Counted from the first letter of the stretch, positions 21,723-52,918 are shown. The stretch is 64,000 bases of DNA from Nemertoderma westbladi (GCA_032718475.1 JAUCBJ010002030.1:1-64000); one strand, 5' to 3'. The notes: a model not told the origin generated them from the letters alone. Translations and numbers: made by a program.

Positions 21723-23621
21723 TAATGCGAAGAGACAGTAACAATACCTGCAATATCCTACTGTAAAGTTTGTGAATCAAATCATAAATCCGACCTTCTC
21801 ACCAAACAGTAAACTCTAAGTAAGCGAATATATTGCAGTATCGATCTCTTATAACCGGTGAGGCAGAAAACAGTCTACGAGCAGACAAACTTCGATAAAA
21901 CAAAATCCCGCGCAGCGAATCCTAAAATCAGGCTGACTCACTGACGGACTAAAGGGCTCGTATACTTTGCCGCGGTGTGATTTATATGGTTGGGCAAAGA
22001 GACGCTAGCTAGGTACAGAGGCAGAGATTTGGAGATGTCTAACTAGCGGGCAAAACACAGTAAGGACGAAAGTTAATTTTATATATTTTGAGGTGTAAAT
22101 AATTTCTAACGCGCGTGTGTTAATTCTGAACGGTCAAAAGCAGTTTTGCTCCTTCACATGTATAATTACTGGGTACGGTGTGCATTTTACGAATATTCTA
22201 ATTTTGTAACTTGTAGGTCCAATACTCACGAATGATAAGGTTCCTTCCCCTCTTGCGTATTTCCAGGACTCAAATTCAGGCATAAGGTTAATGCTACGCC
22301 CAGAATTCGGCAATTTTAATTTACCAGGTCCCTAATACTAAGAAGAAATGTGTTAGTTTACTACAGTAGGCGTACGGTTACGAATAGCTATCCTGGCTCT
22401 TATCTAGAATTTTAGTCACCTAGGTAGGCTGGGTAACTTCCTATCAGGACGTTGGCGGGGACACGGTAGATGTTAGTATATCCCTAATAGCCTCAATTTA
22501 TTTGCGCCTAGTTGTAAACTGCCCTACCGCCTGAATGGTACAATCCCAATTCAGGTGAAACACAGCAACCCTCCTAGCCTACAAGTTCTAATGCAATGGA
22601 CACCGTTGTACTGCAAATAGTCGCAAACGCACCTGTACTTAGCAAGAGTTAGGCGTACAGTTTGCTGCACCCTACCAATGTGTATGCTTCGTACCGGCGT
22701 GCCTACGTCCTATCTGCGTACTAGTATCTGCCTGCTCTCTCCCTCCCCCGTAGGAATATGAAGGTCTACTGTGGTTCTTTCCTGAATCAAGACAGTACAG
22801 TCCCTAAGATGTAATTTTAGGCTCACAGCGTGTCACTACTTCTACCTTTGATCTTTGGTCTTACGCTTAGGTAGCAAGGCGTCGAACGCTGTCTAACCTT
22901 TCAGGCGATGGGCGAATAACTAAGGTGGTATTGCGGGTTGTCTCCTGTCTACATTCCCTTGATGTTCCCGTTCATTGCTGCGGCCCGATCTCTAGCCGGC
23001 CATCCTGTTCCTAAGAGTGTTCACCGTAGTGAATCATGGTGAAAAGAAAAGCAGATAGCGGTATTTCTGAATTTATTGCAGATAATAATACAAAATGTAA
23101 TCTGAAAACTAATGACAGAATAAACAAGATTGAGTAACTAATAAGATTAGATAGATTGCACTGAGATTGATAACTAATGAACAAATCGCACCTTTATATA
23201 GCAAATTTGTGCTGCAATCAATCGAGAAAATTCTCGATTGTTCTATAGGTTCTAACAGGTTTTTAAAGATAGCTATTGGTCCAGCTAATATATAACTTGC
23301 ACGACATTGGATACAATCTAATAACTGCAGTCTCATTGGTTAATCTAGGTACAAACAAATGCAATTTAATTTGTAGCGGTTAATTTAAATGAGTTGAAAT
23401 TCTGTACAAAAAATAATTAGCACTTACTAGGATTCGAACTCAATACCTACTACACATATAATTTCCAACGCTCTACCGACTGAGCTACTGAACCACTTGA
23501 CTAAACGTCGTACAATAGATATAATAAATACAAATGAGGACTCAAAGTAATCTTTTACAAAGTTAATTCGAATAAAATAAAATTTTGAAAATCCACGGCA
23601 TTTAGGGAATATAATTCTATA
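21723..23621 (-). repeat. BEL-2 3' LTR
   Basis: Direct repeat of 38305-41127 once the CRE insertion is removed; abuts the short PPT-like ATGGAGCGG (23630-23622). Confidence 0.96.
23408..23494 (-). ncRNA. tRNA-derived Pol III-like cassette in BEL-2 U3 (second copy at 40914-41000); not a functional tRNA
   Basis: A box TAGCTCAGTCGG, B box GAGTTCGAATCC, T6 run about 17 nt downstream. Acceptor and anticodon stems are not formed. Confidence 0.6.
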
Positions 23622-27500: not shown

Positions 27501-28344
27501 TGTAGGCTCTGTATAGGCTAAGAGCTTCTTTCTTTTCGCGGGTTGACTGATTTGCCTCGTCCAGCGTAAGTTCAAATACATCGGGATCAACAACCTTAGG
27601 TGGGTAAATGACAGTTTCTCCCGCCTTTGGTCCGGTCATAGCAAATGAATGATATGGATTCGATAAAGGATACCCTCCTTCCTGGTAGCGTAGTTGTTGA
27701 TGGTTCGAACACCTCGCCAATATCGGTTCGGGATTTTCCTTATTCAAATGCATCGGAATCGCATTTCGTTGTTCGCGCATACAAGAACCGCATTGATAAT
27801 AAAGTTTATAAACTGAAAATGCTTCCTTGGTTTCTCTATCGTCCCCTCGAGTTCGTCTGTAAAGATGCATTCCATCGAATTCATCTCTTACCGCGGGCAT
27901 AGGTTCGTGCGCCTTTAGGTATTGCATGGTATGATACAAACGACTAATTTCAGTATCGGGGTCTTCGCTAATGTCTCCCGTATCACACAAAGCGTCGTAC
28001 GGGTAAAGTTCATTGAAGGTTTTGCGCAAACTTTCGATTCTTTCGTTTAATGCATTTTGTCTTCTCTTTAATACGTTCGAGTCATATTTAGTTCTCGCGA
28101 GTTTCGCTGTACTTTCCGATAATTCCTTTATACCGAATATAGTGTAGTCCTTGGCTCCAAATCTTTCAAATGGCGCTGCTGCCTCCTCTTGGATATCATA
28201 TCCCCATCTCGGCTCTCCCTGTATCACTTTCTCCATAATTAGGGGTGTAGTTACATAATCATTACTACTAGAGGGAATACAACAGAGTTTTGTAGTTAGT
28301 TGTGAGGAGACGTGAGAGTTTCGTCTGCCCTTTGGGCTCGACAA
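24511..28344 (-). CDS. BEL-2 ORF3: novel Cys/His domain, DEDDy (WRN/EXD2/Mut-7-like) 3'-5' exonuclease domain and 3 CCHC zinc knuckles; first ATG at 28236
   Basis: 1277 open codons between pol and the 3' LTR. ExoI YMFYDNEG, TIQI, LPKMVRNIILDKTVVKIGSGVRED (ExoII), YVDTQ, ExoIII-like QYYLAIE. Knuckles CGKCGVAGHHMTKC, CGWCGDQGSHTFYTC, CTYCNIKGHRASEC. Confidence 0.85.
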   Translation of the reverse strand: MSSPKGRRNSHVSSQLTTKLCCIPSSSNDYVTTPLIMEKVIQGEPRWGYDIQEEAAAPFERFGAKDYTIFGIKELSESTAKLARTKYDSNVLKRRQNALNERIESLRKTFNELYPYDALCDTGDISEDPDTEISRLYHTMQYLKAHEPMPAVRDEFDGMHLYRRTRGDDRETKEAFSVYKLYYQCGSCMREQRNAIPMHLNKENPEPILARCSNHQQLRYQEGGYPLSNPYHSFAMTGPKAGETVIYPPKVVDPDVFELTLDEANQSTREKKEALSLYRAYKAFEKGEMEEWGGRLASLPCHWTSHDQTPAKEMTPEVFESINFAQNVIQRLQIASPERTREMQPYSTLTTKPLSTTLNFPISIPVRQDTTYEIPIVDHPEIISNLEFLPAVVFSDMSKIYDLRRHITQKVVYNVPPHIQDFKELDRAGADIAPSNLKGYLTKTIRLWIGTGTFESDTDIAADWRGKVIRFEDDKDIEKIWQPSEELLDEWNRTFRSFHENGYMFYDNEGGSHQQSLTSKTIQIRAADGVLHVFSRQRSDKRMPIPPANTKRHHLITDIVKKMDQACNIDARMLPKMVRNIILDKTVVKIGSGVREDLISDFAGMTDSDDRLPTPYVDTQPLILWSIEQGYFREYNTQKTGTGYISYLLFNWDYKESKRNKYIETYGEGDTPDMSEFESQLKWRGCVYWAITSPPRAVLQYYLAIESSVNVCLIADIVSRTLKRHPLCLGEDHTFYMEGRIHTDVFRRFLEPFYNSDAQCNAFTRAGFSIFRDVYLRCAGSLIERPSMFTLLPYEGERIVEITDESRQTRAPIGHLGDDFEVTTTIADDPLEELLEIERNLPKKSQTEIRQLEATDAIVCIQPSETYQPIDPDDYDYSVGGSARPIGDLIYERVWYPANTMCGKCGVAGHHMTKCSGKHITTTQLICGWCGDQGSHTFYTCWRFMAQCTYCNIKGHRASECQLRDIPYEHESVKLVRKLFDEWEDLADEHVSAQRRRFPMRAHLGFWAVNPQTMMSEGYISAMPQYDELIEVVDILPHDSGFRVVREYLLQIHPDNKNTWNFQKVVNRITYGEFDRFRTEKRNKGAWLTVAWAYRAAFYHKRIRASVFEEEEVLEATNIPATPVAPSARHPREDGQGRIIRVQKVGQQLKKSINIEERKGVEPTIRITRDTVSLPREPTGGSGHTPADQKGAQATLGSVSSASRAFPDVLPTVVTTDRSRGIGRGFGMPNRRICEEIVAPSLNVQTKPVTRPTSPISRAKSPVRSFRGRGRARSTKR

Positions 28345-28899
28345 CGCTCTAACCTCCTACCCATAGCCTAAGATCTAGGGTTTCTTTAATGACACGCTGC
28401 TTCTTATCTAAAATTTTTTGCCGAAATAAAAACGAATTTGGGCTAAACTGGCTGTGAGTCTAAAATACTCACTTTTTGATCCCAAACTATTATCAGAAAA
28501 TAAGCAATCAAGAATTAGTAATAAATATAGGGGAGTCTATTTATTGACGTAACTTATTGAAACAAGACCGTGTAAAATTTTAATTAAAAATTTAAGAAAG
28601 GCTCGCAAGTCTTCCTCTCTTGTTTCTCTAATTTTAAGTTCCACCCGACTGTACCCTGAAATCTATTCACTGGAGAAAATTTTAAAAATTTTTCAAATCC
28701 AAATGGATTGTCTAAAATTTCGAAAATGTCTCAATATTGTGAGTTCCAAGTAGAATTCCATTTCTTATACCTACAAATCCCGCTCCTATGTGACACATAA
28801 GGGTACCACCCTCAATGTTCACATATAAAGACAATGGAATTCTACCGCTGTCCTTACTATGGTGTACAGGTACGTGGAAATCTATTTGTAAACTCCTAA

Positions 28900-31800
28900 T
28901 TATTTACTAATATTAGGTGGAGATTTGTAGTCTCCAGAATCGTTACGAGTCTCTTCAAGAAGTACGAGACGTTGAGTCGGTCTGTCTACTGTACGACCGT
29001 CAATTGTCCGTACCGTCACAGTTCTTGTCACTCCATCCATAGATGGATGTGTGTCTAAAATTACACCTGTTATCCAGAAGCGTCTTTTTAGATTCACTTC
29101 CGCTAACAGCACGTGATCTCCCGGCTTTAATGCGCGGGTGTTATTGTACCAAGTTGTTCTGGCAGAAATAGAGGGCAAATAATGGTTTTGCCATATTTCC
29201 CAGAATTTGTTAGCTAGTAGTTGCGTGATTTTCCACGCCTTTCTACCGTAGCTATCGCTTTCTATTGGAATAGAAATAGGCGTCAATGTGGTCGGTGCCT
29301 GCATTAGCAGGTGTGCCGGTGTCAAAGCAAACTGAGATTGTTTGTCATCGGGTACTAATACTATTGGTCTAGTATTTAGTATTGCCTCGATTTCAACAAA
29401 CAATGTTGTCAGTTGGTCGTCTGTCAATATGTGGTTTACTAGAATGACCTTTGCCATGGCTGTCTTTATAGATCTAATCAATCTCTCCCAGACTCCGCCT
29501 CTCCATGGACTATCTGGAGGATTAAACTTCCAAACAATCTTGTAAGGACGTAGTTCGTTTGAGATTTGATCATGATCTAATTTCTTAAAGGCTCTAGCAA
29601 TCTCATTCCGAGCACCAACAAAGTTTGTCCCTTGGTCTGAGTACAAGCATTTCACTAGTCCGCGTCTAGCGATAAATCGCCGCAATGCTAGTATAAACGC
29701 GTTGGTGGAAAGATCCATCACACGTTCAATATGAACTGCCCTACTGGACATACATGTGAAAATCAGTCCCCAGCGTTTTACTAGTATACGTCCACGTTTC
29801 GTATGTATGGGACCAAAGCAATCAATTCCAGTCTCTGTAAAAGGTGGTCTGAATGCTTGAAGTCGTGCTTGTGGAAGTTCACTCATTTCTTGGGTACCTA
29901 TTCTAGAATGTACCTTTTTACAAATAATACACGTACGTGTCACTGAACTTAATGCTTTACTGGGTCTAATTAATACAAATCTTGTACGTAAGTAGGAAAG
30001 ACAGTGGTGTCTTCCAGCGTGTTTCAGATGTAAATGTGCGTCCAGTATCATTGCACGTTGTAGTTCGTGATGCTGCGGTATTATTATTGGGTATCTAAAG
30101 TTTGTGTTAAAGTCAATGTTTTGAAGCCGAGATTTATGACAAATTAAGCCATTATAAATAATCGGACTCCAACTCAGTATTGGTGACGACTTGATTGGTT
30201 GACCTTGATTTATAGATGTGAATTCGCGTGCGAAATATCGCAGTTGGTAATGGCGAATTAATTTAATTTCACACCTGTCAATCTCAGCCAATGTAAGTCG
30301 ACGTGTAAAGTCTCGTTTGCCTTTAACGTATTGTACAAAACGTACAATCCACGCTAATTTTCGGCAAGCGTTTGTCCAAGAGTCTGTTAAGTTTACAATA
30401 CGGTCGACGTGAGTATTTGTGACGTCATCAGGTAAGTCAATGGAGATTTTGGAAGGTTTTGATTTACTAGAAGGGCCCACGGGTCCGCCGGTAAGTATTC
30501 CCTTGTTGACTGTTGATCCGTCCGGGTCTACAAGTAATTTGTCCTTCTTCGTCTTCTTACCTTGATTGTCAGTACTTTGTAAGTCGATCGTTAATGGTGG
30601 TTTGAACTCTATGGGGTCACTGGGTTTCGGTAAACTTATTTTTCTGCCGACATTAATCCCAGGTCTTACCATAGGTTGCAAGTTTGGTATGTCTCTTGAG
30701 CGCAAAGTAACACCTGTATTTACATTAGCGTAGGTACTACCCACATCTGTAATACATGAGGTTTCACCGTGCTTACGGTTGCTCAAGTGTGTCAAATTTG
30801 GTAGTTTGTCAATACAAGGCCGCTCCAATAGAGAAACTGCGGCTTCACTATTTGTCAGTATGTCACTAGTGTCTGGTAGAACATTTTGTGATATGTCTGG
30901 CAAAATGTCTGGTTGGCTGTCTAGTAACGTGTCTAGTTGACCGTCTGGCGATATGTCTGGTGTAGAAAGGCTCGCAAGTCTTCCTCTCTTGACCTTTGAA
31001 GTTATATCTTTCCATTTCGCCTTCGGTTTTTTCTTGAGTTTAGCCGCCGTCTTTTTCTTTGCTTTCCCTTTCTTTGGTTTTTTGATTTCCGCGTCTTTAG
31101 GGATAGTGTTAGACTTGTTGTCATATAGTGGTGGCCAATTTAGTGTTGATCTTTGTAAGAATTGTGGTCCGTGTTGCCAAAATTCTTTGTTCTCCGGTTT
31201 ACAGAATTCCTCAGGCATCATTCCTCTTGACGCAATATCGGCTGGGTTTTGTGGTCCGGGACAATGTCTCCAATCTTCTTTTATTGAACGGTCTAGAATT
31301 TCCGCGCGACGGTTAGCTACGAATGTCTTGAATTCAAGTGTGTCGTTGTTTATGTAAAATAAAACCAACGTCGCGTCAGTCCAATAAAATATCTGTAAAC
31401 TTGACTGTAGTTCTGTCTGTATAAGGTTCACAATTGTGGTTGACAGTGTTGCGGCTTGTAGCTCAGCTCGTGGTGTCGTCATATACTTAGTAGGCATTGT
31501 TTTTGCCTTAGAAGTAATGAGCGAAACATCGAATTCTTCTGAGTCTACTTGTCTGCGCAAGTACGCTGCCACACCAAAACCGTTGTCACTGGCGTCCGAA
31601 AAACAATGTAATTCCAAGTTGTCAGGAAATGTTGTTTGTAATGGAAAGTAGACTCTGGGTATGGAATAATCCTCTAGCGAAGATAATTCTGCCTCCCAGG
31701 TCTTCCATAAGTCCACTTGGTCTGATGAGATCGGCTCGTCCCATGTCAGTCCATCCTTCCAAATACTGCGCATATAAATGCGGGCTTGCAGTATTATTGG

Positions 31801-34365
31801 ACTGATGAATCCTAATGGATCGAACAATCGGCTCAATTTTGACAAGCATGATCTCTTTGTCAGTGTGTTTTCTTGACTGTCCAGTCTCACCCTCACTCGA
31901 AAGTTGTCTGTGTTTGGGTCCCAAAAGAGCCCCAACACCTTGGTCGTCGGTAGTGGTTCGAACTCTAGGTCTATGTCACCACCTCCACGCTCAGTCGTTC
32001 CGAATGAGTCTACTAATTCGGCACTGTTTGAGGCGAATTTGGTGAGGTTAAAACCTCCGCCCGCTAAGCAGTCCCGTAATTGATGTGCTACTGTTACAGC
32101 ACGTTCTACTGTGTCACAACTCTGTAAACCGTCGTCGACGTAAAAGTCACGCTCCACAATCCTAATTATCTCTGGGTCATATAAATGTTTCTGATCCCTA
32201 GCGGCTTGTTTTAGGGCGTACATCGTACAGTTTGGGCTGTCTCTGGCACCGAAAACGCGAACTTGCATTTGGTAAGTCGCCGGTGGTAGACTTAAGTCTC
32301 CTTCCGGATACCAGAGGAACCTCAAACTGTCTCTGTCTTGCTCTAACGCTCTCACTTGGTGAAACATAGCTTCAACGTCACAAGTAAAAGCTACTTGACG
32401 CTGACGGAAGCGCATAATCACCCCCATAAGATAATTATTCATGTTTGGTCCATCCATCAACTCGCTATTGAGGGACATTCCCTCAAACAGAGCCGCACAG
32501 TCATTGACTACACGTACTTTGTCTGGTTTGTCGGGGTGTCTCACATAGTGATGTGGCAGGTAGTATGTCTGGTTAGTCACTATCTCTGGGTTAGTCATTC
32601 GGATAGCGTATCCCTTAGTCAAATACGTCTCCATCTGAGTGTTGTACTGCAGATGGGCTTTCTCGTCCTTTAATAGACGTTGCCGTATTGAGTGTAGACG
32701 TCTTAAAGCTAGTGGGTAGTTATTTATAAGTTTAGGACTTTGGCTACGCCATAACATCCCCACCTCATAATGTCCGTCTTTCGCCTGGCGGATAGTATCT
32801 TCCATGATCCTCAAAGATTGTTTCTCCTGTTCCGACATACATGGTTCGTAGCTACCAGGTTCAGCTGTATCTTGTTCTAACCACCTGATAGTCTTCTCCG
32901 TTAATTCTTTGTCCAATGCAGCTTGTTCCACTTGATGATTTCTCAACGCGTCATCATCGATATCGACGGGCATTGTTGAGGTTGTTGGGGTAGGTAGACT
33001 CGCAAGCCTTCCGGCGTTATCATCTGTCGTCGATGGAATCTCTAGCTGACTCGTCTTCTCCCCAAGTTCTAAACTCACCTGGTGAATTAGCTGCTCCTTG
33101 TGACTTATCTTACTAGTTACACGTCTGTCATGTTTTGTATGTAAGGTAGTATGGTCCACGTCGTGTGAAAAGGAATGAATTGAATTTGTAGTTAATAAAC
33201 TACATGTACTTTGTACATCGTCTTCCTCGTCACTTATGTCCAGTGTGCGCACAGGCGCTCGAGTATACCACCCTATCGGCGTTCTACAGGCGTATGCGTT
33301 TCCCGCTACGACTGCCGATGGTCTGGTTTCCCACACTTGATGTAGGTTGAATTGGTCTGTCCCGATCAGCATGGCTACCGATCTATAATTGACAGGACAT
33401 TCAGGTACACCAAGGTGTCTGAAATATTTACGGTCCTCCAAGGATTGTTCTGGGACAGGACCTAGTAGGTTACTAAAGTCTTTGGTGGCCACAAAAGTCA
33501 AATCCTTGAAGGGTAACAAAGACCTCTCCTTTTCGCTGTGTTGCGATTTTGGAAGAAGAGTGTCTAAGTTTAACTTAACTCGTGTCACTGGTATTGCACG
33601 TTGTCCGTGCATACTACTTACGGTGTAACTGACGCGCTTACCTTGTCTGAGATCCGTCACTACATCAGCTATCTGCTCATCCACGTAGCTGTGAGATGAG
33701 GCTGAATCCAGGATAGCGTAGATTCTCTTGCTCCCCTTTGTGCCAGTAATCTTAATTGGAATTACGCTGAATCCCTTTAGTTGGTCAGTCGTCAGAAGCG
33801 CGATCGATGGTTGGTCGTCTCCATCAGAATATACGTCGTCGTCTTCTGACTCTTCGTCCAACGATCCGGATTGTTCTGAGAAGCAATCCTTGATATGTGT
33901 CACAAAGGTTGGAGTCGTTTTCGATTCTCGATTTTTGTAGGCCGCATCACATCTCGCTGCTGCTTCCGGGTGTTCCCTGGCGAAGCGTTTTGTTGGCGTG
34001 TGGCTGTCTGTGTGGAGCAGACCGTCGTGGTTGTGTCCACAGGATGGACAAGTGTTGGTATTTGGGCAATCTTTGCGAACGTGTCCGTGTCGCGTACACC
34101 GCCAACAAGAGTCCAATGGCCGTATCTGCAGCCGTCGTTCTTCCGAGTTTAACTCGCGAAACTGTCGACAACCTCTCAACTTGTGACCGATATACCGCTT
34201 GCCTAAATGCTCGCAGTATTGGCAGCCGCTGAAGTCGGTACCGAGTTGCTGTCTAGTCTGTTTTGTCCCAATGGGCGCAGATACCCTACTACCGTCCGAG
34301 AATTGTCGGGTTTCCGTCGGTGTGGCGTAAGTGGCCGTCTTGGTGGATGTTGTCTGGGGTTTTTG
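28900..34365 (-). CDS. pol: BEL-2 NC-pol: zinc knuckles, aspartic protease, RT, RNase H, integrase
   Basis: The frame is open from the gag stop. CQYC..H..C / CWRC..H..C / CPSC..H..H knuckles, AILDSAS, CDVEAMFHQV, FYVDD, HCFSDAS, NPADIASRG, HHCC, GIDCFG-SDQGTNF-WERL. Confidence 0.95.
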   Translation of the reverse strand, partial: QKPQTTSTKTATYATPTETRQFSDGSRVSAPIGTKQTRQQLGTDFSGCQYCEHLGKRYIGHKLRGCRQFRELNSEERRLQIRPLDSCWRCTRHGHVRKDCPNTNTCPSCGHNHDGLLHTDSHTPTKRFAREHPEAAARCDAAYKNRESKTTPTFVTHIKDCFSEQSGSLDEESEDDDVYSDGDDQPSIALLTTDQLKGFSVIPIKITGTKGSKRIYAILDSASSHSYVDEQIADVVTDLRQGKRVSYTVSSMHGQRAIPVTRVKLNLDTLLPKSQHSEKERSLLPFKDLTFVATKDFSNLLGPVPEQSLEDRKYFRHLGVPECPVNYRSVAMLIGTDQFNLHQVWETRPSAVVAGNAYACRTPIGWYTRAPVRTLDISDEEDDVQSTCSLLTTNSIHSFSHDVDHTTLHTKHDRRVTSKISHKEQLIHQVSLELGEKTSQLEIPSTTDDNAGRLASLPTPTTSTMPVDIDDDALRNHQVEQAALDKELTEKTIRWLEQDTAEPGSYEPCMSEQEKQSLRIMEDTIRQAKDGHYEVGMLWRSQSPKLINNYPLALRRLHSIRQRLLKDEKAHLQYNTQMETYLTKGYAIRMTNPEIVTNQTYYLPHHYVRHPDKPDKVRVVNDCAALFEGMSLNSELMDGPNMNNYLMGVIMRFRQRQVAFTCDVEAMFHQVRALEQDRDSLRFLWYPEGDLSLPPATYQMQVRVFGARDSPNCTMYALKQAARDQKHLYDPEIIRIVERDFYVDDGLQSCDTVERAVTVAHQLRDCLAGGGFNLTKFASNSAELVDSFGTTERGGGDIDLEFEPLPTTKVLGLFWDPNTDNFRVRVRLDSQENTLTKRSCLSKLSRLFDPLGFISPIILQARIYMRSIWKDGLTWDEPISSDQVDLWKTWEAELSSLEDYSIPRVYFPLQTTFPDNLELHCFSDASDNGFGVAAYLRRQVDSEEFDVSLITSKAKTMPTKYMTTPRAELQAATLSTTIVNLIQTELQSSLQIFYWTDATLVLFYINNDTLEFKTFVANRRAEILDRSIKEDWRHCPGPQNPADIASRGMMPEEFCKPENKEFWQHGPQFLQRSTLNWPPLYDNKSNTIPKDAEIKKPKKGKAKKKTAAKLKKKPKAKWKDITSKVKRGRLASLSTPDISPDGQLDTLLDSQPDILPDISQNVLPDTSDILTNSEAAVSLLERPCIDKLPNLTHLSNRKHGETSCITDVGSTYANVNTGVTLRSRDIPNLQPMVRPGINVGRKISLPKPSDPIEFKPPLTIDLQSTDNQGKKTKKDKLLVDPDGSTVNKGILTGGPVGPSSKSKPSKISIDLPDDVTNTHVDRIVNLTDSWTNACRKLAWIVRFVQYVKGKRDFTRRLTLAEIDRCEIKLIRHYQLRYFAREFTSINQGQPIKSSPILSWSPIIYNGLICHKSRLQNIDFNTNFRYPIIIPQHHELQRAMILDAHLHLKHAGRHHCLSYLRTRFVLIRPSKALSSVTRTCIICKKVHSRIGTQEMSELPQARLQAFRPPFTETGIDCFGPIHTKRGRILVKRWGLIFTCMSSRAVHIERVMDLSTNAFILALRRFIARRGLVKCLYSDQGTNFVGARNEIARAFKKLDHDQISNELRPYKIVWKFNPPDSPWRGGVWERLIRSIKTAMAKVILVNHILTDDQLTTLFVEIEAILNTRPIVLVPDDKQSQFALTPAHLLMQAPTTLTPISIPIESDSYGRKAWKITQLLANKFWEIWQNHYLPSISARTTWYNNTRALKPGDHVLLAEVNLKRRFWITGVILDTHPSMDGVTRTVTVRTIDGRTVDRPTQRLVLLEETRNDSGDYKSPPNISK

Positions 34366-37300
34366 TCAGTTTGAGGATGGCAAGGTGATTCCTTCTGCCA
34401 CGATGTGCTGGTCAGTGTAGTTGGATTGAGTTTCTACCACTGCCTCCCTGGATATCAAAATGTACACATCCTCCAGTTTTAAGAATCCATCCCGCTCTTC
34501 TCGCTGGTATTCGATCTTCCTCCACTCCCGACGAAGTCGATGGTGGAGTCGTCCTATGATCTTTAATAGGACTGTAGGGGTATTCCCGTAGTCAAGTTGT
34601 CCAATGGATCTCAAAGTAGTGATAGCGTTCTTTATCTCGTCAGCCAGTTTCAATAAGTCTACGGGTTTAGTAATAGCCCCTCCCTTACAGAGTTCCTCTA
34701 TCACTGACCTGGCCATGCTGACTGTACCTCTGTAGATCGAAGTTAAACGATCGTACGCTAGTTCGAAAGCGTCCGGTACACCAACAAAGGTCTCCGCCAA
34801 ACGTTTAGGTTCTCCTGACAACGTTTGAAGCAGGTAATTAAACTTCTCCCGTGATGTAAAGGCGCACACGGCGATCTGAGATTCGATATAGTCTACGAAA
34901 GTGTGCCAGTGTTTTGAACTACCGGAAAACTTCGGTGGTTGTTGTACCGGCAATCCCTGTCTGGCTGCGAATTTCGCTATCTCCTCGGCAACGTTCAGAA
35001 TTTCGCGTCCTTGGTTGGTAATCTGGTTGATATCCCTTCTTGGCGCTTTTCCCTGATACGATGTGTGTTTTGAAGGTACCGGTCTTTGTGGTTCCTTCGG
35101 GTGTCTATTGTGTTCGAATTCAGTGTTCCTCGAACTATCGGTTTGAACTTCCTCCAGACGTTCCTCAATCTGAGCCAACTTGTTAACAACTGGTCGCAGG
35201 ATGTCGGCGAACTGTTGTATACTGATTGCGTCCGTTGGTTGTAACGCCTTCTGTGTTGGTGTATTCTGTGGAGGATTGTCTACAAAGGAGTTGTCTGAAC
35301 GCTCGCGTTTATATTCATCGGCCGCCCCTGTTCTAAATACCTCGCGTTTCGGGTAATCCGATTCGCTCGAAGTACTACTATCATCTGGATATGGTGGTCG
35401 ACATGTTCGCGTCCGTTGCGTCGTCCGAATTCTAACGTTTCGCCTCGGAACATCGTCCACTGATCTCCGCTGCTCGGTAGGCTCACAAGTCTTCCTTGAA
35501 GTCGTAGATTGCGATGTAAACTGGTTGAACGGTCGCATATCCACTGGTCTCCGTTGTTCGGTAGGCTCACAAGTCTTCCTCGAAGTCGTAGATTGCGATG
35601 TAAACTGGACCGGTGGTCGAATAGCCGCCTTTGAATCAACTGGCCTTGTAGGCCGAAATGTCATTGGGTATTCGTAGTGTGTAACCGGTTTAGGTGTCAA
35701 AGGTGGACTCACGTGTTTTGTCGTTAGTAGTGCAGGTCCGGTCAATAAACTACTACGATCTGTAATCGGTGGGTTACTTACCTTGACTTTCAGAATAGGC
35801 GACGACGTTGCTCTTGGCGGTGTAAACTTGTCCGGAATAACAAACCTGTGTTCCGTCGCACCATGGATAGGAGAAATATCACTACTACCCGCAATCGAAA
35901 CAGGTTTCTTAGTTGTAACTGGTGCGAACATAGGGGTTACTTGAGGGAATCTTTGACATAAGTCTTTAACTAATTGTCGTTCCCGTCCGGGTGCTCCTAC
36001 GCTTCCTTCCTTCTTCCGTTCCTGAATTTGGCGATGTCTTACCTCTAACTGGTCCAAATCATGTCCGTCACGAGATCTCATTGATCGATCGCGGGCCTTT
36101 TGATCCAGATCCTCCTCGGCGTTCGCTAATTCTCTCGCCTTCTTCTCGAGTTCAAAATGAAGTTTAGCTGTCTTCTCTCGTTGTTCCGTTTGTTGTCGTT
36201 GCGCCTCAAACTCCGCTTGTCGTATAGCGGATTGAGCTTTTATTTGCCGTGTTTTCATTTCGGCCCGTGCTTCCGAAACTAATCGTTCTCGCTCTAATTC
36301 CGCCACTGCCGTTTGTCGCTCTAGTTCTGCCATTTGTCGCTCTAATTCCGCCGCTGCCGTTTGTCGCTCTAGTTCGGCCGCTGCCGTTTGTCGCTTTAAT
36401 TCTGCCGTTTGTCGCTCTAATTCCGCCGCTGCCGTTTGTCGCTCTAGTTCTGCCGCTGCGTTTCGTTGCGCTAAATCAGCCGCTGCCGTTCGTTGAGCAA
36501 TGTCTACCTCTAACCTTTCTACTTCAGCTGCTTCTAATTCAGCTTGTTCCTGTAGATGAGAGATTCTCGCTACATTCGCAACGCGTAGCTTCTCTTCTTC
36601 TGCTGCTGCCTGCATCACTAGAAGTTGAGCTTGTTCCTCCATTTCTCGTCGTTGTCGGTAGAATTCTTGCTGTTGTCGAGCAACTTCTGACGTAACCATA
36701 CTTCCCTCGCCAATTTCGCTACGAATACTTACCAACGATTGATCCAATATTCCCGTTGCCGATTCGATTCGTACGGGTGAAGTTTCCCTCGTATATTCCG
36801 GCACGGTTTCCAAATCGCCGACGTCGACGCACATACGTAAGTGATCCGTCAGGTGTTTCAATTGTCCATCCAGTCGGTACAGTTCCTGTTCTTCCTCGGG
36901 TTGTAATAATTCGTCCGAAACTGACTCACCTAACAACTGGTCCGCTTGTTCCTGTTGTATCTGCCTAATCGTCGACTTAAACTGAATCAGTTTCTCTCTA
37001 GCGATCATTAGTTTATCGAGGATTCTAAGTTGAGTATCCATGTCCTGTCTCTGTCTAGCTAGATCTTGTAGACCAATTAGGTTATCTACGGACTTGTGTA
37101 CTCTACTTTGTACTCTAACCTGGAGGGTGTAGAACTCGAATCGAGACATCGGAGCGGTCAACTCGTTTAAAATGCGTTGGCCTTCTCCAATACTCCTGGT
37201 TATATGCGCCATGTATCCGCCGACGCTTCTAACCACACTCTCCTGACTTCCTGCTGAACTTACCATGTCTGTTTCCCTGTATCTAGGTTGTGGAACAGTT

Positions 37301-37494
37301 AGAAAGTCCTCGGTCCTGCCGTCGCCTCGTACTACGGCATCCGGTACTCCCGTTGGATGTACTGGTGACGCACACGGTGTAGGTTCGGTAGGCTCGCGAG
37401 TCTTCCCCTGTTGTTCTTCCGCTGCTGACTTATCTCCGTCGCATGAGTCATAGTCGGTAGGTGTATTCTTCGTATAGTCTTGTTTGTCACTCAT
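34366..37494 (-). CDS. gag: BEL-2 gag (coiled-coil region plus BEL capsid-like domain)
   Basis: 1042 aa; AAAELERQT tandem repeats; PPKFSGSSKHWHTF...KFNYLLQTLSGEP typical of BEL/Pao gag. Confidence 0.9.
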   Translation of the reverse strand: MSDKQDYTKNTPTDYDSCDGDKSAAEEQQGKTREPTEPTPCASPVHPTGVPDAVVRGDGRTEDFLTVPQPRYRETDMVSSAGSQESVVRSVGGYMAHITRSIGEGQRILNELTAPMSRFEFYTLQVRVQSRVHKSVDNLIGLQDLARQRQDMDTQLRILDKLMIAREKLIQFKSTIRQIQQEQADQLLGESVSDELLQPEEEQELYRLDGQLKHLTDHLRMCVDVGDLETVPEYTRETSPVRIESATGILDQSLVSIRSEIGEGSMVTSEVARQQQEFYRQRREMEEQAQLLVMQAAAEEEKLRVANVARISHLQEQAELEAAEVERLEVDIAQRTAAADLAQRNAAAELERQTAAAELERQTAELKRQTAAAELERQTAAAELERQMAELERQTAVAELERERLVSEARAEMKTRQIKAQSAIRQAEFEAQRQQTEQREKTAKLHFELEKKARELANAEEDLDQKARDRSMRSRDGHDLDQLEVRHRQIQERKKEGSVGAPGRERQLVKDLCQRFPQVTPMFAPVTTKKPVSIAGSSDISPIHGATEHRFVIPDKFTPPRATSSPILKVKVSNPPITDRSSLLTGPALLTTKHVSPPLTPKPVTHYEYPMTFRPTRPVDSKAAIRPPVQFTSQSTTSRKTCEPTEQRRPVDMRPFNQFTSQSTTSRKTCEPTEQRRSVDDVPRRNVRIRTTQRTRTCRPPYPDDSSTSSESDYPKREVFRTGAADEYKRERSDNSFVDNPPQNTPTQKALQPTDAISIQQFADILRPVVNKLAQIEERLEEVQTDSSRNTEFEHNRHPKEPQRPVPSKHTSYQGKAPRRDINQITNQGREILNVAEEIAKFAARQGLPVQQPPKFSGSSKHWHTFVDYIESQIAVCAFTSREKFNYLLQTLSGEPKRLAETFVGVPDAFELAYDRLTSIYRGTVSMARSVIEELCKGGAITKPVDLLKLADEIKNAITTLRSIGQLDYGNTPTVLLKIIGRLHHRLRREWRKIEYQREERDGFLKLEDVYILISREAVVETQSNYTDQHIVAEGITLPSSN

Positions 37495-38293
37495 TTCGGT
37501 AGTTGTAAGTCAAGTAAAGTGAGTGTCAAAGTATCAAACTTACCATATTTTATCTAAACGGTACTAATTACAGTCATATAAAATTAGCCTACCGGCCGAT
37601 TTTATAGCAGATGGATAAAATTAGCCTAAACGGCCAATTTTACAGCAAATAAATGTCACGGAATAAGTATATAATAAAATTAGCCTAGCGGCCAATTTTA
37701 TAACAAATAAATCGGATAACGATATGCGTTATCAAAAGGTAAATTAAATACAATAATACGGACTAATTCAGCAATGAACAAAGAAATCGTACGGAATGCA
37801 TAAATACTTGAGGCAGTGGAACCCACAATAATTTTAACTAATACGGTAATGCCTAACTTATTTATGCAACTTTTCGAACTCACCCACTCCAATAATTCTC
37901 CAGAAAAACAGATTCCCAGATACAAACCGGACGTGAACCTTTCCGTTTTTAACGTTGCGGACGAAGCGCGATTTTCCCAACCAAAGTTGTTGAGTTATCT
38001 ATCTCCCAAACTTGCTAAACACGGTCTTGCTCCCGTTACAGTCTAGAAATGAGTTCTGAATCCTGAAAAAACAAAAGAGTTAGGTTTTACTTTTTACGAA
38101 AATTTTGTACCGGTACAATATGGTATTTAAACCCTTTTAAACACCGGTATTCAATTCCAAAATATTTTACACGCGGTTCAAATCAAATTTTTATTTCAAA
38201 AAATTAGCACTTAGCTAATCAAATACAAATTTTTACCTCAAAATACAAAATTTTCAAATAACTTTAGTCCTACCGAACCGTAGTTCAGTAAAA

Positions 38294-38304
38294 CATATTC
38301 CTAC
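38294..38304 (-). promoter_or_regulatory. BEL-2 non-tRNA primer-binding site (putative self-priming)
   Basis: GTAGGAATATG abuts the 5' LTR and is exactly complementary to sense-strand CATATTCCTAC at 39342-39332 (3' LTR copy 22760-22750). Confidence 0.75.
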
Positions 38305-41127
38305 TAATGCGAAGAGACAGTAACAATACCTGCAATATCCTACTGTAAAGTTTGTGAATCAAATCATAAATCCGACCTTCTCACCAAACAGTAAACTCTA
38401 AGTAAGCGAATATATTGCAGTATCGATCTCTTATAACCGGTGAGGCAGAAAACAGTCTACGAGCAGACAAACTTCGATAAAACAAAATCCCGCGCAGCGA
38501 ATCCTAAAATCAGGCTGACTCACTGACGGACTAAAGGGCTCGTATACTTTGCCGCGGTGTGATTTATATGGTTGGGCAAAGAGACGCTAGCTAGGTACAG
38601 AGGCAGAGATTTGGAGATGTCTAACTAGCGGGCAAAACACAGTAAGGACGAAAGTTAATTTTATATATTTTGAGGTGTAAATAATTTCTAACGCGCGTGT
38701 GTTAATTCTGAACGGTCAAAAGCAGTTTTGCTCCTTCACATATATAATTACTGGGTACGGTGTGCATTTTACGAATATTCTAATTTTGTAACTTGTAGGT
38801 CCAATACTCACGAATGATAAGGTTCCTTCCCCTCTTGCGTATTTCCAGGACTCAAATTCAGGCATAAGGTTAATGCTATGCCCAGAATTCGGCAATTTTA
38901 ATTTACCAGGTCCCTAATACTAAGAAGAAATGTGTTAGTTTACTACAGTAGGCGTACGGTTACGAATAGCTATCCTGGCTCTTATCTAGAATTTTAGTCA
39001 CCTAGGTAGGCTGGGTAACTTCCTATCAGGACGTTGGCGGGGACACGGTAGATGTTAGTATATCCCTAATAGCCTCAATTTATTTGCGCCTAGTTGTAAA
39101 CTGCCCTACCGCCTGAACGGTACAATCCCAATTCAGGTGAAACACAGCAACCCTCCTAGCCTACAAGTTCTAATGCAATGGACACCATTGTACTGCAAAT
39201 AGTCGCAAACGCACCTGTACTTAGCAAGAGTTAGGCGTACAGTTTGCTGCACCCTACCAATGTGTATGCTTCGTACCGGCGTACCTACGTCCTATCTGCG
39301 TACTAGTATCTGCCTGCTCTCTCCCTCCCCCGTAGGAATATGAAGGTCTACTGTGGTTCTTTCCTGAATCAAGACAGTACAGTCCCTAAGATGTAATTTT
39401 AGGCTCACAGCGTGTCACTACTTCTACCTTTGATCTTTGGTCTTACGCTTAGGTAGCAAGGCGTCGAACGCTGTCTAACCTTTCAGGCGATGGGCGAATA
39501 ACTAAGGTGGTATTGCGGGTTGTCTCCTGTCTACATTCCCTTGATGTTCCCGTTCATTGCTGCGGCCCGATCTCTAGCCGGCCATCCTGTTCCTAAGAGT
39601 GTTCACCGTAGTGAATCATGGTGAAAAGAAAAGCAGATAGCAGTATTTCTGAATTTATTGCAGATAATAATACAAAATGTAATCTGAAAACTAATGACAG
39701 AATAAACAAGATTGAGTAACTAATAAGATTAGATAGATTGCACTGAGATTGATAACTAATGAACAAATCGCACCTTTATATAGCAAATTTGTGCTGCAAT
39801 CAATCGAGAAAATTCTCGATTGTTCTATAGGTTCTAACAGGTTTTTAAAGATAGCTATTGGTCCAGCTAATATATAACTTGCACGACATTGGATACAATC
39901 TAATAACTGCAGTCTCATTGGTTAATCTAGGTACAAACAAATGCAATGGAGCCACTCCACGAGGCGAACCGCGCGGCACTGCGGGCGGCCACAACAACGC
40001 CACTCGAGATCGCCCGTCTTAACGTTGTTGACGACCCGGTATCCGGTTGTTGGCTGGACGCTATTCCCATCAGCTCGCTAGGGCTGAAACTCACGGACTC
40101 CCAGTTCAGGGTTTCTGTCGCCACACGCCTCGGTTGCAAGTTAACCGAACCCCACAGGTGCTCCCGGTGCGGATCCGAAGTAAAACCGGATGGTCTCCAC
40201 GGACTATCCTGTGTGAGAAGCGCCGGGAGGCTGCCACGCCACTCTATGTTAAACGACATAGTGAAACGTGCATTGGCCTCCTGTGGGGTTAGAGCTCGCC
40301 TTGAACCGGTCGGGTTGTGTAGGGCTGATGGGAAGCGTGTCGATGGCGTTACCCTCGAATCGTGGAGTGGGGGCCGGCCGATGACTGGGATGCGACCGTC
40401 GTCGACCCCCTCGCTCCCAGTCATCTCGCCCAGAGCATGCAGGCCGGCCGCCATGTTGTCGAGGAGGCGGAAAACTCAAAGATTAAGAAATACGAGGAAC
40501 TGACCGTCCGAGGGAGCTACCTCTTCTACCCGGTAGCATTCGAGACCTTCGGTCGGCCCGGTCCTGAGACGGCTGCATTCCTTAAGGAGGTTGGCCGACG
40601 CCTCCACGCAGCCACTCAGGAGCCGCGATCCCATCGGTTCCTCCTCCAACGTCTCCTCGTAGCCATCTTGATCGGCAACACGGCCTCCATCCTCGGCTCC
40701 ATGGACCCTCTGTCCGACGGCCTCTACGACGAGGTTTTGTCGCCAGCTGCCCCCGCACCCCCCACTGACTCAGCGGGTTAGACTGATCTTGAACTTTTGT
40801 ATATAGTTAGGTAGGTAGTTTATATTAATTTAGTTAGTGTGCCTCATTGTGCTATAAGAAAATAATGCAATTTAATTTGTAGCGGTTAATTTAAATGAGT
40901 TGAAATTCTGTACAAAAAATAATTCGCACTTACTAGGATTCGAACTCAATACCTACTACACATATAATTTCCAACGCTCTACCGACTGAGCTACTGAACC
41001 ACTTGACTAAACGTCGTACAATAGATATAATAAATACAAATGAGGACTCAAAGTAATCTTTTACAAAGTTAATTCGAATAAAATAAAATTTTGAAAATCC
41101 ACGGCATTTAGGGAATATAATTCTATA
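38305..41127 (-). repeat. BEL-2 5' LTR (interrupted by CRE-like insertion)
   Basis: 2823 bp minus the 916-bp insert and 8-bp TSD equals 1899 bp, matching the 3' LTR. Confidence 0.96.
39948..40863 (+). mobile_element. 5'-truncated CRE-like (RLE) non-LTR retrotransposon
   Basis: Absent from the other LTR; 8-bp TSD AATGCAAT (39940-39947, 40864-40871). Encodes CSRC..DGLHGLSC, RHSMLND, DGKRVDG, WDATVVD, AENSKIKKY, FYPVAFETFG across one frameshift. Confidence 0.88.
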
Positions 41128-41209
41128 TAGGGAACAATAGCACTATACAACGAATAATAATAAAAGCAATACATGCAATTATAAGAAAGAAAATAAAAAA
41201 TATGACTCA

Positions 41210-47727: not shown

Positions 47728-48869
47728 TGTTCGCGCTTTTAGACCTTTAGCAGTTTAACCTGCCAATTTTAGTTGTGCTTTTGTTTATAAATCGACTTTA
47801 GCCTATATAAATTATTTAGTGTACTGAAATTACATCAGCCGAAGCCAGTCTGTGCGCGACCATTCACCCACAGTTAAGGGAGACTGGATTCGGATGCTTT
47901 GATAGTGATTGCGGTGTAGACCTACTGTATTATTCGATTGATCGTTACTATATAATCTCTGACAATATATTTACTTTCGGGGAAATATTAACAGTTCCTT
48001 TAGGACGTGGCGCTTTAAGTATAAAAACAGAGTTATGACTTATACTAATCACAACTAGATGGCCACTACTGAGTTTCGTAAAAAGCGCATTCTTTAGGAG
48101 ATGCTTATTACTTCACACTACTTCACACTGACTTCACACTACTTCACACTGAATCTGCCGACCATCACTGAATTTGATCATATATAAGGAGGATCGCAAC
48201 TGACACATGTAGGGATTATGAAATAGCATTTAATTCACACAAAAACCACTATAATGTAAGTCGCAGTTGCTACCGGTAAACCTGTTCCTCTCACCTTCAG
48301 TAATCAAGAAGATTGGGGGTTTTATGATTATTCATTGGTATTCTCCAAATATATCAGCAATATACATCAATATCACAACAATTAATAACAGAAGTAAAAT
48401 AATGCGGTGAACAGTCAGTATGTGTTACTTATGCAGTGTTCCATGTGCAGCAATGTTATGCAGTGTGTCGTTCGTGATTCAGATTGGTGATCCAAGTCAG
48501 TTAATAGTTTTACGTTCTTGTAATCAAAGCCATCAGATGTTTAGGCCAAAGTCTGAAACTTCCACAACAGAAGTACAGAATAACTCTAAGCCGGTTCTCT
48601 GGCTCAGAAAGGTAAACAAATACCGTAATGCATTGCGCGGTTTTCCATAGGCCCCTGTCCAACATAAAGTGAAAATCGCTCTGATTGGCTGAGCAGAACA
48701 AAGAGGTTCCACGTCTACAGGAAATCAGCTGACAGATTTCGTCATCTGAGCTCCAATCTTTTAGAGTATTATGCGCATTGCGGCAAAAACGACTTGTTAT
48801 GTCCGCTAAAGCACCTACACTGCGCATTGCGGGGAAAAATGACTTGTTATGTCCGCAAAAGCTTTTACA
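47728..48869 (-). repeat. BEL-3 3' LTR
   Basis: Direct repeat of 59334-60489 with several substitutions and indels. Confidence 0.95.
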
Positions 48870-48947: not shown

Positions 48948-51151
48948 TTAGTCCTTCTTACGTGAACGGCATTTACGAAGTTTTTTGAGGCTAGCAAGAG
49001 TCCTTTTCTCTTTGGGGCGAGCCACTTTACTAGGAGGGCTATAACTCCTGGGTGAGGGGTGCAATACAATTGCATCGGAAGGTTTAGGGTTACGGTCGGT
49101 GTATCCGCCGGTCGAGGTACCCGGTTGATCGATATCAACCTCAGTGGAACGAGGTCGAACAACCTTTAGAGCGCGTTTCAGGACAGCAGCTCTTACTGGT
49201 CCCTGAAGGTTCGTTTGCACGAGAGCGGTAGGTTGACCGTGAGTAGTGAGAAATTTCCTCGGTTTGATGGTTCTTTCCAACTCGCGTTCTCTGGCTTTAT
49301 ATTCATATGGTTGTCTATGAACTTCTTGTATCTCTAGATACGAGTTTATGAACAAGTCACCGTGGAATTTATCAATGGTAGAAACTTTAAACTGTATGTA
49401 GGATCTTCCGGTTTCGCCATATAATATTGAGTTAAATTGACATAATAAGGGTGGTCTTTGATCCCATAAAATGAGTTCGGTAAAGGTCTAGCGCGTAGGT
49501 TGACCTCGTGTACCATACGACGGACAAGATCCGCTCGATTGTCCGGAGGTTCAACGAGTATACCGTCGACACGAGTGGCCTCGATTGGCGGACGTTGTAA
49601 CATAGGAGCGTCAGCGATAAGATCTCTAGATCTTAGGTTGATATCAACCGGTTGGGGTTGTACCGTGGCGAAGAGTTTGTCTCCGAAATGGGGAACCATT
49701 GAAGGATGAATAATGTTTTTGGAATAGAGATCAGTCATAAGGATTTGAGCTTCTGGCTGGGCTAAAGCTGCTTCTTCTCTCTCGTCCATTTCGATATGCT
49801 TCTCCTCGAGCTGATTTTCCTCCGCTTGTCGTTGGAAGCGTTCGTCCAAAAACTCTTGCAGAGAGTAGATTCGTCCAAGTTCGATGTCTTCCTCGAGATT
49901 CTGGAATTCCCGATCAAACTGGGGTAAAGCTAATTCTTTTACCGCTTGGACTTGCCGCTGCAATTTACGTTTATCTAAACAATCGTAAGTTCCTCTTCCA
50001 ATCTTTTGTCGAATAGCGTCTAGCGCGTTTCGTACAACGCTCTCCTCCACCTCGGTGACAGGTTGTATCGGGGTTAGACCGGGACGATTATACGGGTTGA
50101 ACGGCGATATTAGGTGTCCGCGTCCCAATCCGGCTAGGTAAGATGGGCGAATATCTAGGGAGCCCACAACCGGAGTGCCACCGACTAATTGTTCTGGTAA
50201 CACTAGATCTTTGAACAATGAGTGCAGTTCAGGAGGATCCGTCATACTATTAGGATCAAGAGTCTGAGGTCTCACCAGGGAATGGGGATGTCTGACCGAG
50301 TATTCCGGAACTCTGATCATCGGTTTATTTAAGGATCGTTTGAGTCGAGCGAGCGTAGGTGATACGTCGAACAAGTTTCGCTCGAAACTCCCGTAAGTAT
50401 AGCGAGTAAAACTGTGTTTAGCGCAACGTCTCCGCGGATGTTTATGTCTTTCCGTTTGTTGGTTGGGTCTAGGGCATTCATCGCAATAATACCAAAGACG
50501 CACGTCTTGTAGGGGAAACGCGGGTGATCTTTCTCCAGTTTTACAATATTCCTCCATCTGTTCGAAGCTATCCGGTACAACAGGTAGCGGTCGATCGGCG
50601 GTAAGATACATCATAGTGAAATAGAGTCGTTTGAGTTCTATCATAGGGTCATGATGTATACCTTGAGGATATCGAGTTTCTAGATTTTGTTGACTGGCTA
50701 CATTGAGATATGTTTCTCTCAAGAATTCCAGATATTCGTTGAAGTCACTGCGTTTATCCGGCTCTTCAACGTCTTCTCTTTCGAGTTGGTTTCGAATAGA
50801 ATTTTCGTGTTCGATTCTCAGTTTATCGTTCCGACTCCGCTGGGTATGATATTTAAATAGGATCATTTCCCTTTCGGTGTCTACATCGTCCGTATCGTGT
50901 AAATCGATAGGATGACCAGTAGTTAAGAAGTCCATATACGTACCATTACGATGCGTATAGCGAGCGGTGAATTTTCTATAGTCCAATTCACGCGTGAGCT
51001 GTTCCTTTGACATTGGCGGTTCGATATAATGGCCATCGTCCTCCGTAGTAGGTTGACTAGCGTCGCCGCGTATTAAACTATCAACAAACGCTTGCAAGGG
51101 TAGGGTATATCGCTCCCTGATACCAAGATCATCTTCTATCAACTCAGTCAT
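48948..51151 (-). CDS. BEL-3 ORF3 (601 aa, 51151-49346) with an overlapping -1-frame extension to 48948
   Basis: Long ATG-initiated ORF in the env position; shares DP..E..RLY.TM.YL.A..P.P.V.D.F..M..Y...CxxC...RCxxH...RY..G with BEL-2 ORF3. Confidence 0.8.
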
Positions 51152-52918
51152 AGCTGCTATATGAGTTTATCAATATTATAATTAATCATAATTTAGGCTA
51201 GCAGTCGTCGCTGCCTCCCCCTCAATGCCCCCGGACAGCGCAAGCTCCTCAGCGCTGATGTACTGTCGCCGCTGTGCCTCTCGCCAACGTAGTAGCTACA
51301 CAACGACAACAATAACCAGCGCGAGTCACTCCACTGTCCGTCCCAAGGGCTCAGAATTACTTCAGGTTCTTGCTACAGAGGCAGGGTAACTTTCACAACT
51401 GCGACTCGCTACTGTAAACACACTTTAGTAGTAACATTCACCTATAAACGCACAAATTCCACACAACTGTCACAAATTGTACACATTCGGGCCATTTGTC
51501 CGTTAGTCAAGTGCCTTCCAGAATGCCACGTTATTATTATGTATCCCTGGATACTAGCAGTGTGCTATTTATTCCGTATGCTATTCAATGGGGTAAGCTT
51601 TCTATTGTTCTTTTAACTCGCTTCTAATTCTAGCGTGGTTGTTGCAATGGTGACATTATGGAAAGCTAGCAGTAGAATTAGGGAAATTCTCATGCATACA
51701 GATCTGGGATGCTATTTAATAGTAATTCTTTAATTGTCAATATTCCCCTTTATACATGATTTTATGAATTTTATCGGCTATTGACTAGATATTGGAGATT
51801 CTCGCACACTAATATACTTAATAGGGTGAATCTCTGCTCCCATGATCTATTAATTAATGGAATTTTGGGAATGTTATAAATTGTATAAAATGACAATTTA
51901 TCAAAATCATGAGAGGATAAGAATTTAAATTTATTCCCGTAAATTTTATTATTTAATATTAAAATAGACACAATTTTACTCCAGAACATGTCTGTCTGGG
52001 GACTAGGATCCTTAATTCTAGGAAATTTGTTTTTTTAAGAGCATCGGTAAGTGCTACGATATCTTAATCGACTAGAATTTTTAAAGGATCTGAATTTTAA
52101 CAGATTTTGATTTATAGATTTTTTTGGTTTACAAACTCCTTAGAGTTTATTTGTCTGCATTTACTCTATTATAACATTTGTTTTAATAGATTTTTATAAA
52201 TATTAAATAGTTAATATTTAAGATGGGCACCGATTTATTCCAGAACTTGTCTGGGGACGTTAACCACTGATTCTAGAATTTTGTCTTTCAAGTATATCGG
52301 TGGGTGCCGCGATATCTTAATCGACTAGAATTACAGATGGTCAAAGGGTTTAACAGATTTATTTTGCGTTTTACGCTACTGTTAAAGGGACATCACGCTA
52401 CTATATGTATTATTTAATATACGGCATGAGAGCAATATTGCAAGAAGCAATGTCAGTGAGAAGAGGCAAGTCGTTTCCAAGGTCTACCCAGAGCTTGGTT
52501 TAGCCGAGACACGAGGATCTGAACTTTGCATTCCTAATACTCTACTTACCAATAATACTTGAGTATAGTAGGAGCTTTATTGTACTTTAATAAGTACGGA
52601 CATTTCATCTTACTGTAGTCACGTATTTATAATATGATACGGACAGTAAGGAAAGAGAAAAATAATTATTTCTCGCCGTTGCACTAAATATATAATGTTA
52701 AGTAATTAAGTAATAAACACGGGTATATATATTGCACTAATCTACTAAATATTCGCCAAAATAACATTCTACTAAATAAAATTAAAGAAAACGATTATAA
52801 TAAAATTATATAATAATACATACATAAATATAAAAATAATAAAAAAAATATAAAATACTATAGTCACACACCCACTCCAGACGCTGTTACGTTGGGGAGT
52901 CCCTAGATGTTGGTTGGA

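Follow-up and report, generated by a model that had tools for sequence, protein, structure and literature searches.

Two BEL/Pao retrotransposons, here called elements A and B, lie within a 64,000-nt stretch of DNA from Nemertoderma westbladi (GCA_032718475.1 JAUCBJ010002030.1:1-64000; the whole stretch is referred to as the window), and in both of them the primer-binding site (PBS) adjoining the 5' LTR is the exact complement of a segment within the element's own LTR (Table 1). This layout, its recurrence in related elements and its specificity to each family were read directly from the sequences, and on this basis it is likely that these BEL/Pao elements prime reverse transcription with their own RNA in some form.

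Element A and the match between its PBS and LTR

Element A is a young BEL/Pao retrotransposon on the minus strand, with a length of ~18.5 kb without an insertion, 7 differences in 1899 nt between its two LTRs, and a 5-bp target duplication, CCCTA, flanking both sides. The originally proposed membership in BEL/Pao was confirmed because DUF1759, Peptidase_A17 and DUF5641 were all found above the Pfam cut-offs. The domain order is PR-RT-RH-IN, as in BEL/Pao, and PF05380 is present in all homologues among the matches listed. The closest named proteins, with 40-44% identity, are from corals, echinoderms, molluscs and a hemichordate. The in-frame stop between gag and pol (34366-34368, minus strand) represents either a programmed read-through site or a break. 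The 916-nt insertion, which by its motifs is presumably a fragment of a non-LTR retroelement of the restriction-like endonuclease type, is more recent than the integration of element A and is missing from another copy of the element in sequencing run X1. A LINE-type ORF of 902 aa with an RVT_1 domain (41141-43849, plus strand) starts directly beside the target site of element A.

Table 1. Coordinates of features in elements A and B, counted from the first letter of the window.
Feature	Position	Strand	Remarks
A, 5' LTR	38305..41127	-	1899 nt plus 916-nt insertion; ends TA...TA
A, 3' LTR	21723..23621	-	second LTR copy; purine tract before LTR, common in form to element B
A, primer-binding site	38294..38304	-	11 nt, adjoins LTR, no TGG
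A, predicted self-primer segment	39332..39342	-	exact PBS complement; LTR positions 862-872
A, 3' LTR copy of primer segment	22750..22760	-	possible alternative primer source
A, upstream flank of segment	39347..39353	-	7 nt predicted to pair with 38292-38286 just after PBS
A, purine-rich stretch after segment	39307..39331	-	predicted pairing with U5 end 38329-38305
A, candidate splice acceptor	39364..39372	-	by eye, weak; 21 nt before segment
A, TATA box (TATATAAA) in LTR	39775..39782	-	three CCAAT boxes upstream; 440 nt upstream of segment
A, AATAAA	39079..39084	-	downstream of segment, 258 nt from its start
A, insertion in 5' LTR only	39948..40863	+	916 nt; ~8 nt duplicated
A, gag frame	34366..37509	-	DUF1759; one in-frame stop between gag and pol
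A, pol frame	28900..34365	-	zinc knuckles, protease, RT (YVDD), RNase H region (Peptidase_A17), integrase, DUF5641
A, extra ORF	24511..28356	-	1281 aa; three CCHC-like knuckles; between pol and 3' LTR
B, 5' LTR	59334..60489	-	TG...CA; target duplication TTGTA
B, 3' LTR	47728..48869	-	second LTR copy
B, primer-binding site	59322..59333	-	12 nt, adjoins LTR, no TGG
B, predicted self-primer segment	60122..60133	-	exact complement of own PBS
B, coding region	49346..57447	-	gag in two frames (DUF1759) plus extra ORF, 606 aa
B, extra ORF	49346-51166	-	606 aa; before 3' LTR

The PBS of element A and its 11-nt complement in the LTR were found at the positions, and with the letters, given in the original prediction. 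The second LTR and the target duplication fix the LTR end at 38305, and no base therefore separates the 11-mer from the LTR. When the LTR was shuffled with dinucleotides preserved, 1 of 2000 shuffles reached the match at this offset, and 7 of 2000 reached 11 nt if offsets of 0-3 nt were allowed. Among the 14,653 internal positions of the element, 11 reached 11 nt. Within the window, the reverse complement of the PBS occurs solely in the primer segment and in its copy in the 3' LTR. The 8 nt that follow the LTR contain no TGG, in agreement with the claimed absence of a TGG-type PBS, and no tRNA genes were identified in the window by ARAGORN. As judged from the sequences, the match is real and not a chance event, and it extends beyond element A.

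The integrated ends of element A (TA...TA; 38305-38307 and 41126-41127) include TTA, and the LTR thus reaches the first base beside the PBS. In relatives such as L051, L052 and L006, TTA is a spacer outside the LTR.

Element B provides the second case in the window. Its 12-nt match was reached by 1 of 2000 shuffles of its LTR and by 1 of 10,434 internal positions, and its PBS letters are unrelated to those of element A, with which it shares 26% identity over 122 aa in the gag protein. No match to an RT or integrase was obtained in the three long ORFs of element B that were scanned. The primer segment is contiguous in both elements.

The match recurs in related elements and is mostly split by a predicted intron

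Relatives from other marine samples were collected with an RT-RNase H alignment. From metagenome contigs the 80 best of 529 loci were taken, and from genome bins all 17, with identities of 33-44%; no relatives were found among viral contigs. The genome-bin loci (L081-L097) represent animal-type BEL/Pao elements in 17 contigs of bacterial genome bins, for which host contamination is the most likely source. Both LTR 3' ends were readable in 23 of the 97 loci, which form the test set, and a match of 10 nt or more was allowed to span a GT...AG intron in the LTR.

Of the 23 loci, 17 match their own LTR over 10-15 nt, with the match beginning 0-4 nt past the LTR end. In 4 of these it is contiguous, while 13 match only across a GT-AG intron of 67-511 nt in the LTR, mostly with a GTAAG donor and a pyrimidine-rich acceptor. 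For each positive element, only 0-4 of 150 control positions scored as well. Three of the six loci without a 10-nt match (L028, L053, L095) have misplaced ends or are changed copies of positive families and a fourth, L029, has an LTR of only 55 nt; the misses in L065 and L082 are unexplained. TGG is absent from the 8 nt that follow the LTR in every one of the 23 loci, which gives 0 of 25 with elements A and B included. A TGG candidate in L019 was rejected, as a PBS of the family type is located ~410 nt further on.

We also compared each PBS to the LTRs of other elements. Matches of 10 nt or more were obtained for 18 of 23 elements with their own LTR, as compared to 18 of 506 foreign pairs, a count made without phylogenetic correction that represents covariation at the family level. 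Among the 18 foreign matches, 11 were between sister families. This comparison excluded L023, which is a duplicate of L021, and L029 for its 55 nt of LTR. The original prediction had proposed to look for such covariation, and had named a PBS matching a tRNA 3' end, or complementarity absent from other family members, as evidence against self-priming; covariation was found, and neither of the two contrary outcomes was. Self-priming independent of tRNA was thereby strengthened, with matches in different letters in element B and in the relatives.

Another 23 loci lacking the second LTR end were scanned without a null, and 9 plausible matches were picked by eye. From this set, L006, L024, L039, L049 and L052 were added to the tests of primer ends and flank pairing only, and are outside the counts of 17/23 and 18/23 given above.

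In a tree of 104 RT sequences, the split and contiguous forms are interleaved. Element A sits on a long branch that falls outside the sampled loci, with weak support (0.77-0.88) and under an arbitrary root. The signature extends through the entire sampled clade at ~40% RT identity, and the sample includes no tRNA-primed BEL element by which its origin could be dated. The idea that self-priming was invented in the lineage of element A is therefore not upheld. The PBS of L052 (TTA-GTAGAAAATCT) resembles that of element A (TTA-GTAGGAATATG), and each is matched by its own LTR; the two are not neighbors in the RT tree despite the similarity.

The intron interrupts the primer segment in most relatives, and splicing would therefore have to build the segment in these elements. 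We give about even credence to the broader scenario that a large clade of BEL/Pao elements from marine animals dropped tRNA priming in favor of a mode unlike that of Tf1, with a primer that lies inside the LTR transcript, ends in a conserved ...AC and is spliced together in most families, and with elements A and B as intron-less members.

A fold-back model for priming in element A

In this layout, the PBS adjoins the LTR end as integrated and is perfectly complementary to bases 39342-39332 of the LTR. From it we infer a series of steps that involve folding, splicing, a cut, an enzyme and the use of the segment as primer. The 5' region of the genomic RNA would fold back and place the segment on the PBS, with helices on both flanks. 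An end in ...AC would be freed by cleavage immediately 3' of the duplex, for which the RNase H of the element is, on the Tf1 precedent, the most likely enzyme. Minus-strand DNA would then begin at 38305, extend to the cut and jump to the 3' LTR, and the sequence used for this first strand transfer would be the one between the cut and the poly(A) site that follows 39084. The primer would probably be longer than 11 nt, with the RNA or an exon beginning shortly upstream of 39342. In the split relatives, splicing of the LTR intron would assemble the primer segment, which elements A and B would carry ready-made. We consider the chances to be balanced for this reading as a whole, in which element A is primed by fold-back of its own RNA and the primer somewhat exceeds 11 nt.

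The predicted 3' end of the primer, at 39332 in element A, is AC in 17 of 23 families (element A included), AT in 2, ACT in 3 and AA in element B. In 16 of 19 cases an AWTAAA signal follows the end of the predicted primer, which also speaks for the fold-back reading. If true, self-priming gives a sharp prediction, namely that each family has a single RNA 3' end and that the base at which it lies is known.

In strict Tf1 fashion, as the original prediction had it, transcription of element A would start at 39341-39342 and the first 11 nt would serve as the whole primer. The match has the length of the Tf1 primer (PMC7175516, in the part of the text available), a YYANWYY motif overlaps the proposed start, and the primer-PBS duplex had a probability of 0.91 with an RNA that begins at 39342. 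Moreover, the bases after the segment are predicted to form a second duplex with the end of U5, as in the pretzel structure of Tf1 (PMC10085805, in the sections available). The initiator-like motif is indeed present where it was originally noted but is weak: it occurs 22 times in the LTR of element A, and only 1 of 18 elements has it at the corresponding place. The U5-end duplex was the best site in a scan of the LTR, with a shuffle p of 0.063, but was enriched in only 1 of 23 families. A TATA box is located 20-40 nt before the primer segment in none of 21 families, whereas in 8 of the 21 a TATA box lies 47-440 nt upstream, and in five of these 8 the distance is 122-144 nt. If the RNA began right at the segment, first exons would be only 3-10 nt long in the 13 split loci, which match across a predicted splice junction. 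The promoter signals thus do not support the claim that the site represents the first ~11 nt of the transcript, and we consider it unlikely.

Pairing of the bases upstream of the segment also argues against a start at the segment itself. When the 20 nt upstream of the segment were compared to the 20 nt after the PBS, pairing was significant (p<0.05) in 5 of 21 families (Fisher 3e-4), as compared to 10 of 148 cross pairs, and the signal vanished 10 nt further out. For element A, the shuffle p was 0.010 in one test and 0.015 in the family test. The effect is modest, with 16 of the 21 families not significant and a p of 0.22 for element B.

The TATA box of element A has an initiator-like site near 39750 as its predicted start, and a second AATAAA is located at 39659, ~120 nt after the TATA box and upstream of the primer segment; if used, this signal would place the segment outside R. 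In element B, a TATA-like site at 59789 lies downstream of the primer segment. In folds of the whole region of element A, the primer-PBS duplex had a mean probability of 0.91-0.93 when the RNA started 0, 12 or 25 nt upstream of the segment, and of 0.03 or less with 50-408 nt upstream, which includes the start predicted from the TATA box. For element B the values were only 0.34 and 0.00, and all of these folds span 1-1.5 kb of RNA, a size at which they are unreliable whether for or against. As modeled, folding favors an RNA 5' end of element A within 25 nt of the segment. As a speculation, the weak candidate splice acceptor could reconcile the TATA box at 39782 with the folding of element A. 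Contigs from run X1, for which an RNA origin was guessed and which holds a quarter of the words, have a gap over the PBS of element A and no joint at either primer segment, and are evidence neither way.

Other sources of the primer and other roles of the pairing

As an alternative to fold-back priming in cis, the primer could come from another copy of the segment, such as the 3' LTR end of the genomic RNA, the co-packaged partner RNA or a short transcript of the LTR, and be cut or trimmed to the duplex. The segment is present in both LTRs of element A, and a primer of this kind would remove the folding problem for an RNA that starts near 39750. In 14 of 17 relatives, an AWTAAA signal follows the segment within 0-100 nt. 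Inheritance of the intron in the split families would also let only one LTR copy be spliced, and the sequence alone leaves either copy as a candidate. Against this, the poly(A) signal in elements A and B is ~250 nt or more from the segment (in element A at the site originally described as about 250 nt downstream), the duplex of element A with the U5 end fits a fold-back in cis, no nuclease could be assigned to the extra ORF, and the relatives have little room for one. We regard a primer from another copy as rather improbable.

Long-range helices in the 5' leader are common in LTR elements, and the pairing could in principle be a structural or regulatory helix, for packaging or as a translation switch, with priming by other means. 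Such a role is distinctly improbable, given that every positive element has its helix ending within 0-4 nt of the LTR end, with a conserved 3' ending, that no tRNA-type site is found there, and that the integrated end of element A is the very next base. It is very improbable that a host tRNA fragment or another small host RNA acts as primer with an incidental self-match: half-tRNA primers have been described in copia lineages (PMC6317226, in the portion available), but some 20 different PBSs each match their own LTR and rarely another's, and mature tRNA ends would need the TGG that is lacking throughout. A chance match, for which speaks that the 1899-nt LTR matches 2 of 22 foreign PBSs at 10-12 nt if offsets and introns are allowed, is next to impossible and, in view of the shuffles for both elements and the recurrence in relatives, already refuted at the family level by the sequences.

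Comparison with known systems

Self-priming has been described for Tf1/sushi elements of the gypsy group (PMC7175516, PMC10085805, PMC4600332, PMC3601003, PMC6934838, PMC5443660). According to the available part of one of these sources, the primer of Tf1 consists of the first 11 nt of the mRNA and is freed by an RNase H cut (PMC7175516). Like Tf1, Tf2 and Tj1, which are Ty3/gypsy chromoviruses of the Tf1/sushi type, element A has a PBS of ~11 nt beside the LTR that is complementary to its own LTR RNA, with no tRNA-type site, and the second duplex predicted for it would resemble the Tf1 pretzel as portrayed in these texts. Element A belongs to a different superfamily, with BEL/Pao markers and no chromodomain by Pfam. 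It would work like Tf1 yet is not a member of the Tf1/sushi group. Three further differences apply in so far as the available portions of the Tf1/sushi literature describe these elements. An intron-split primer segment, as in the 13 related BEL/Pao loci, is undescribed for Tf1/sushi; the Tf1 pretzel uses partners downstream of the primer, whereas flank pairing in the BEL/Pao families involves bases upstream of it; and the start of the Tf1 RNA is the start of the primer, while the family evidence here points to an RNA start upstream of the segment.

The ICTV profile of the Belpaoviridae describes an 18-nt PBS complementary to tRNA-Arg or tRNA-Gly, priming by host tRNA in a replication cycle that is poorly understood, LTRs that measure 0.2-1.2 kb and a genome size of 4.2-10 kb (PMC8742986). 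Element A agrees with this family in the gag-pol order, DUF1759, Peptidase_A17, DUF5641, the YVDD motif, the purine tract and the 5-bp target duplication, but differs in the lack of a tRNA-type PBS, its 1.9-kb LTRs, its length of ~18.5 kb, its TA...TA ends and an extra ORF that is not env (PMC8742986).

In plants, self-priming has been predicted for Tcn1 (gypsy) and for TAR, Houba and Osr-1 (copia), with the criterion that complementarity to the LTR is 10 nt or more and starts 0-5 nt after the 5' LTR (PMC6317226, in the text available). Elements A and B show complementarity of this length and position. The plant survey concerned gypsy and copia lineages and, in the sections available, sought contiguous matches only (PMC6317226).

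Neither self-priming of BEL/Pao elements nor a splice-built primer was found in a literature search that included few subscription papers and no Repbase reports or supplements, in line with the original statement that no described BEL/Pao case was known to its author. The priming seen here resembles a known kind, in a superfamily for which no published case was found. For Cer7 of C. elegans, also a BEL/Pao element, it has been said that the element encodes a tRNA-like primer of its own, a statement for which our literature search gave no confirmation. Cer7 would be alike in supplying its own primer, but as a separate tRNA-like RNA from the 3' region, whereas the PBS here is matched by a segment of the LTR that is not tRNA-like. 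The main texts of PMC3118150 and PMC554778 do not mention a PBS or tRNA, and the passages on these subjects in the accessible part of PMC8220671 are generic only.

If self-priming is true for these elements, BEL/Pao would be the third LTR superfamily, after gypsy and copia, to have left tRNA priming, and the loss would span a large animal clade and not one odd family. An internal and often splice-made primer would connect RNA processing with reverse transcription in a new way, such that host splicing licenses reverse transcription, and self-priming would free the elements from control by the supply of tRNAs or by tRNA fragments. A PBS that matches the element's own LTR explains the failure of PBS finders on these elements.

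Extra ORFs and other features of the window

The extra ORFs of elements A and B have an N-terminal region in common, with 31% identity over 133 aa (E 4e-11); the searches gave no other homologue of the ORF in element A. For the central 380 aa of the ORF in element A, no relatives were found among 1.84 billion representatives. Motifs seen by eye suggested a DEDD exonuclease that trims the primer (PMC5408684, in the part available), a candidate that was rejected with no support from Pfam or solved structures; a single-sequence fold gave a pLDDT of 32 and likewise no support. Identification of the extra ORF as env was also rejected, as the searches gave no support.

In U3 of both LTRs of element A (~41000-40915 and 23494-23410, minus strand), a tRNA-like stretch combines motifs that resemble an A-box and a B-box with a run of T. 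It was rejected as a tRNA or source of the primer, with no match in Rfam or by ARAGORN and with the primer segment located outside it. The window also contains several inverted-repeat elements and a ~1.1-kb array of 20-nt tandem repeats (401-2063, 4717-8809, 13029-14175, 15202-16204).
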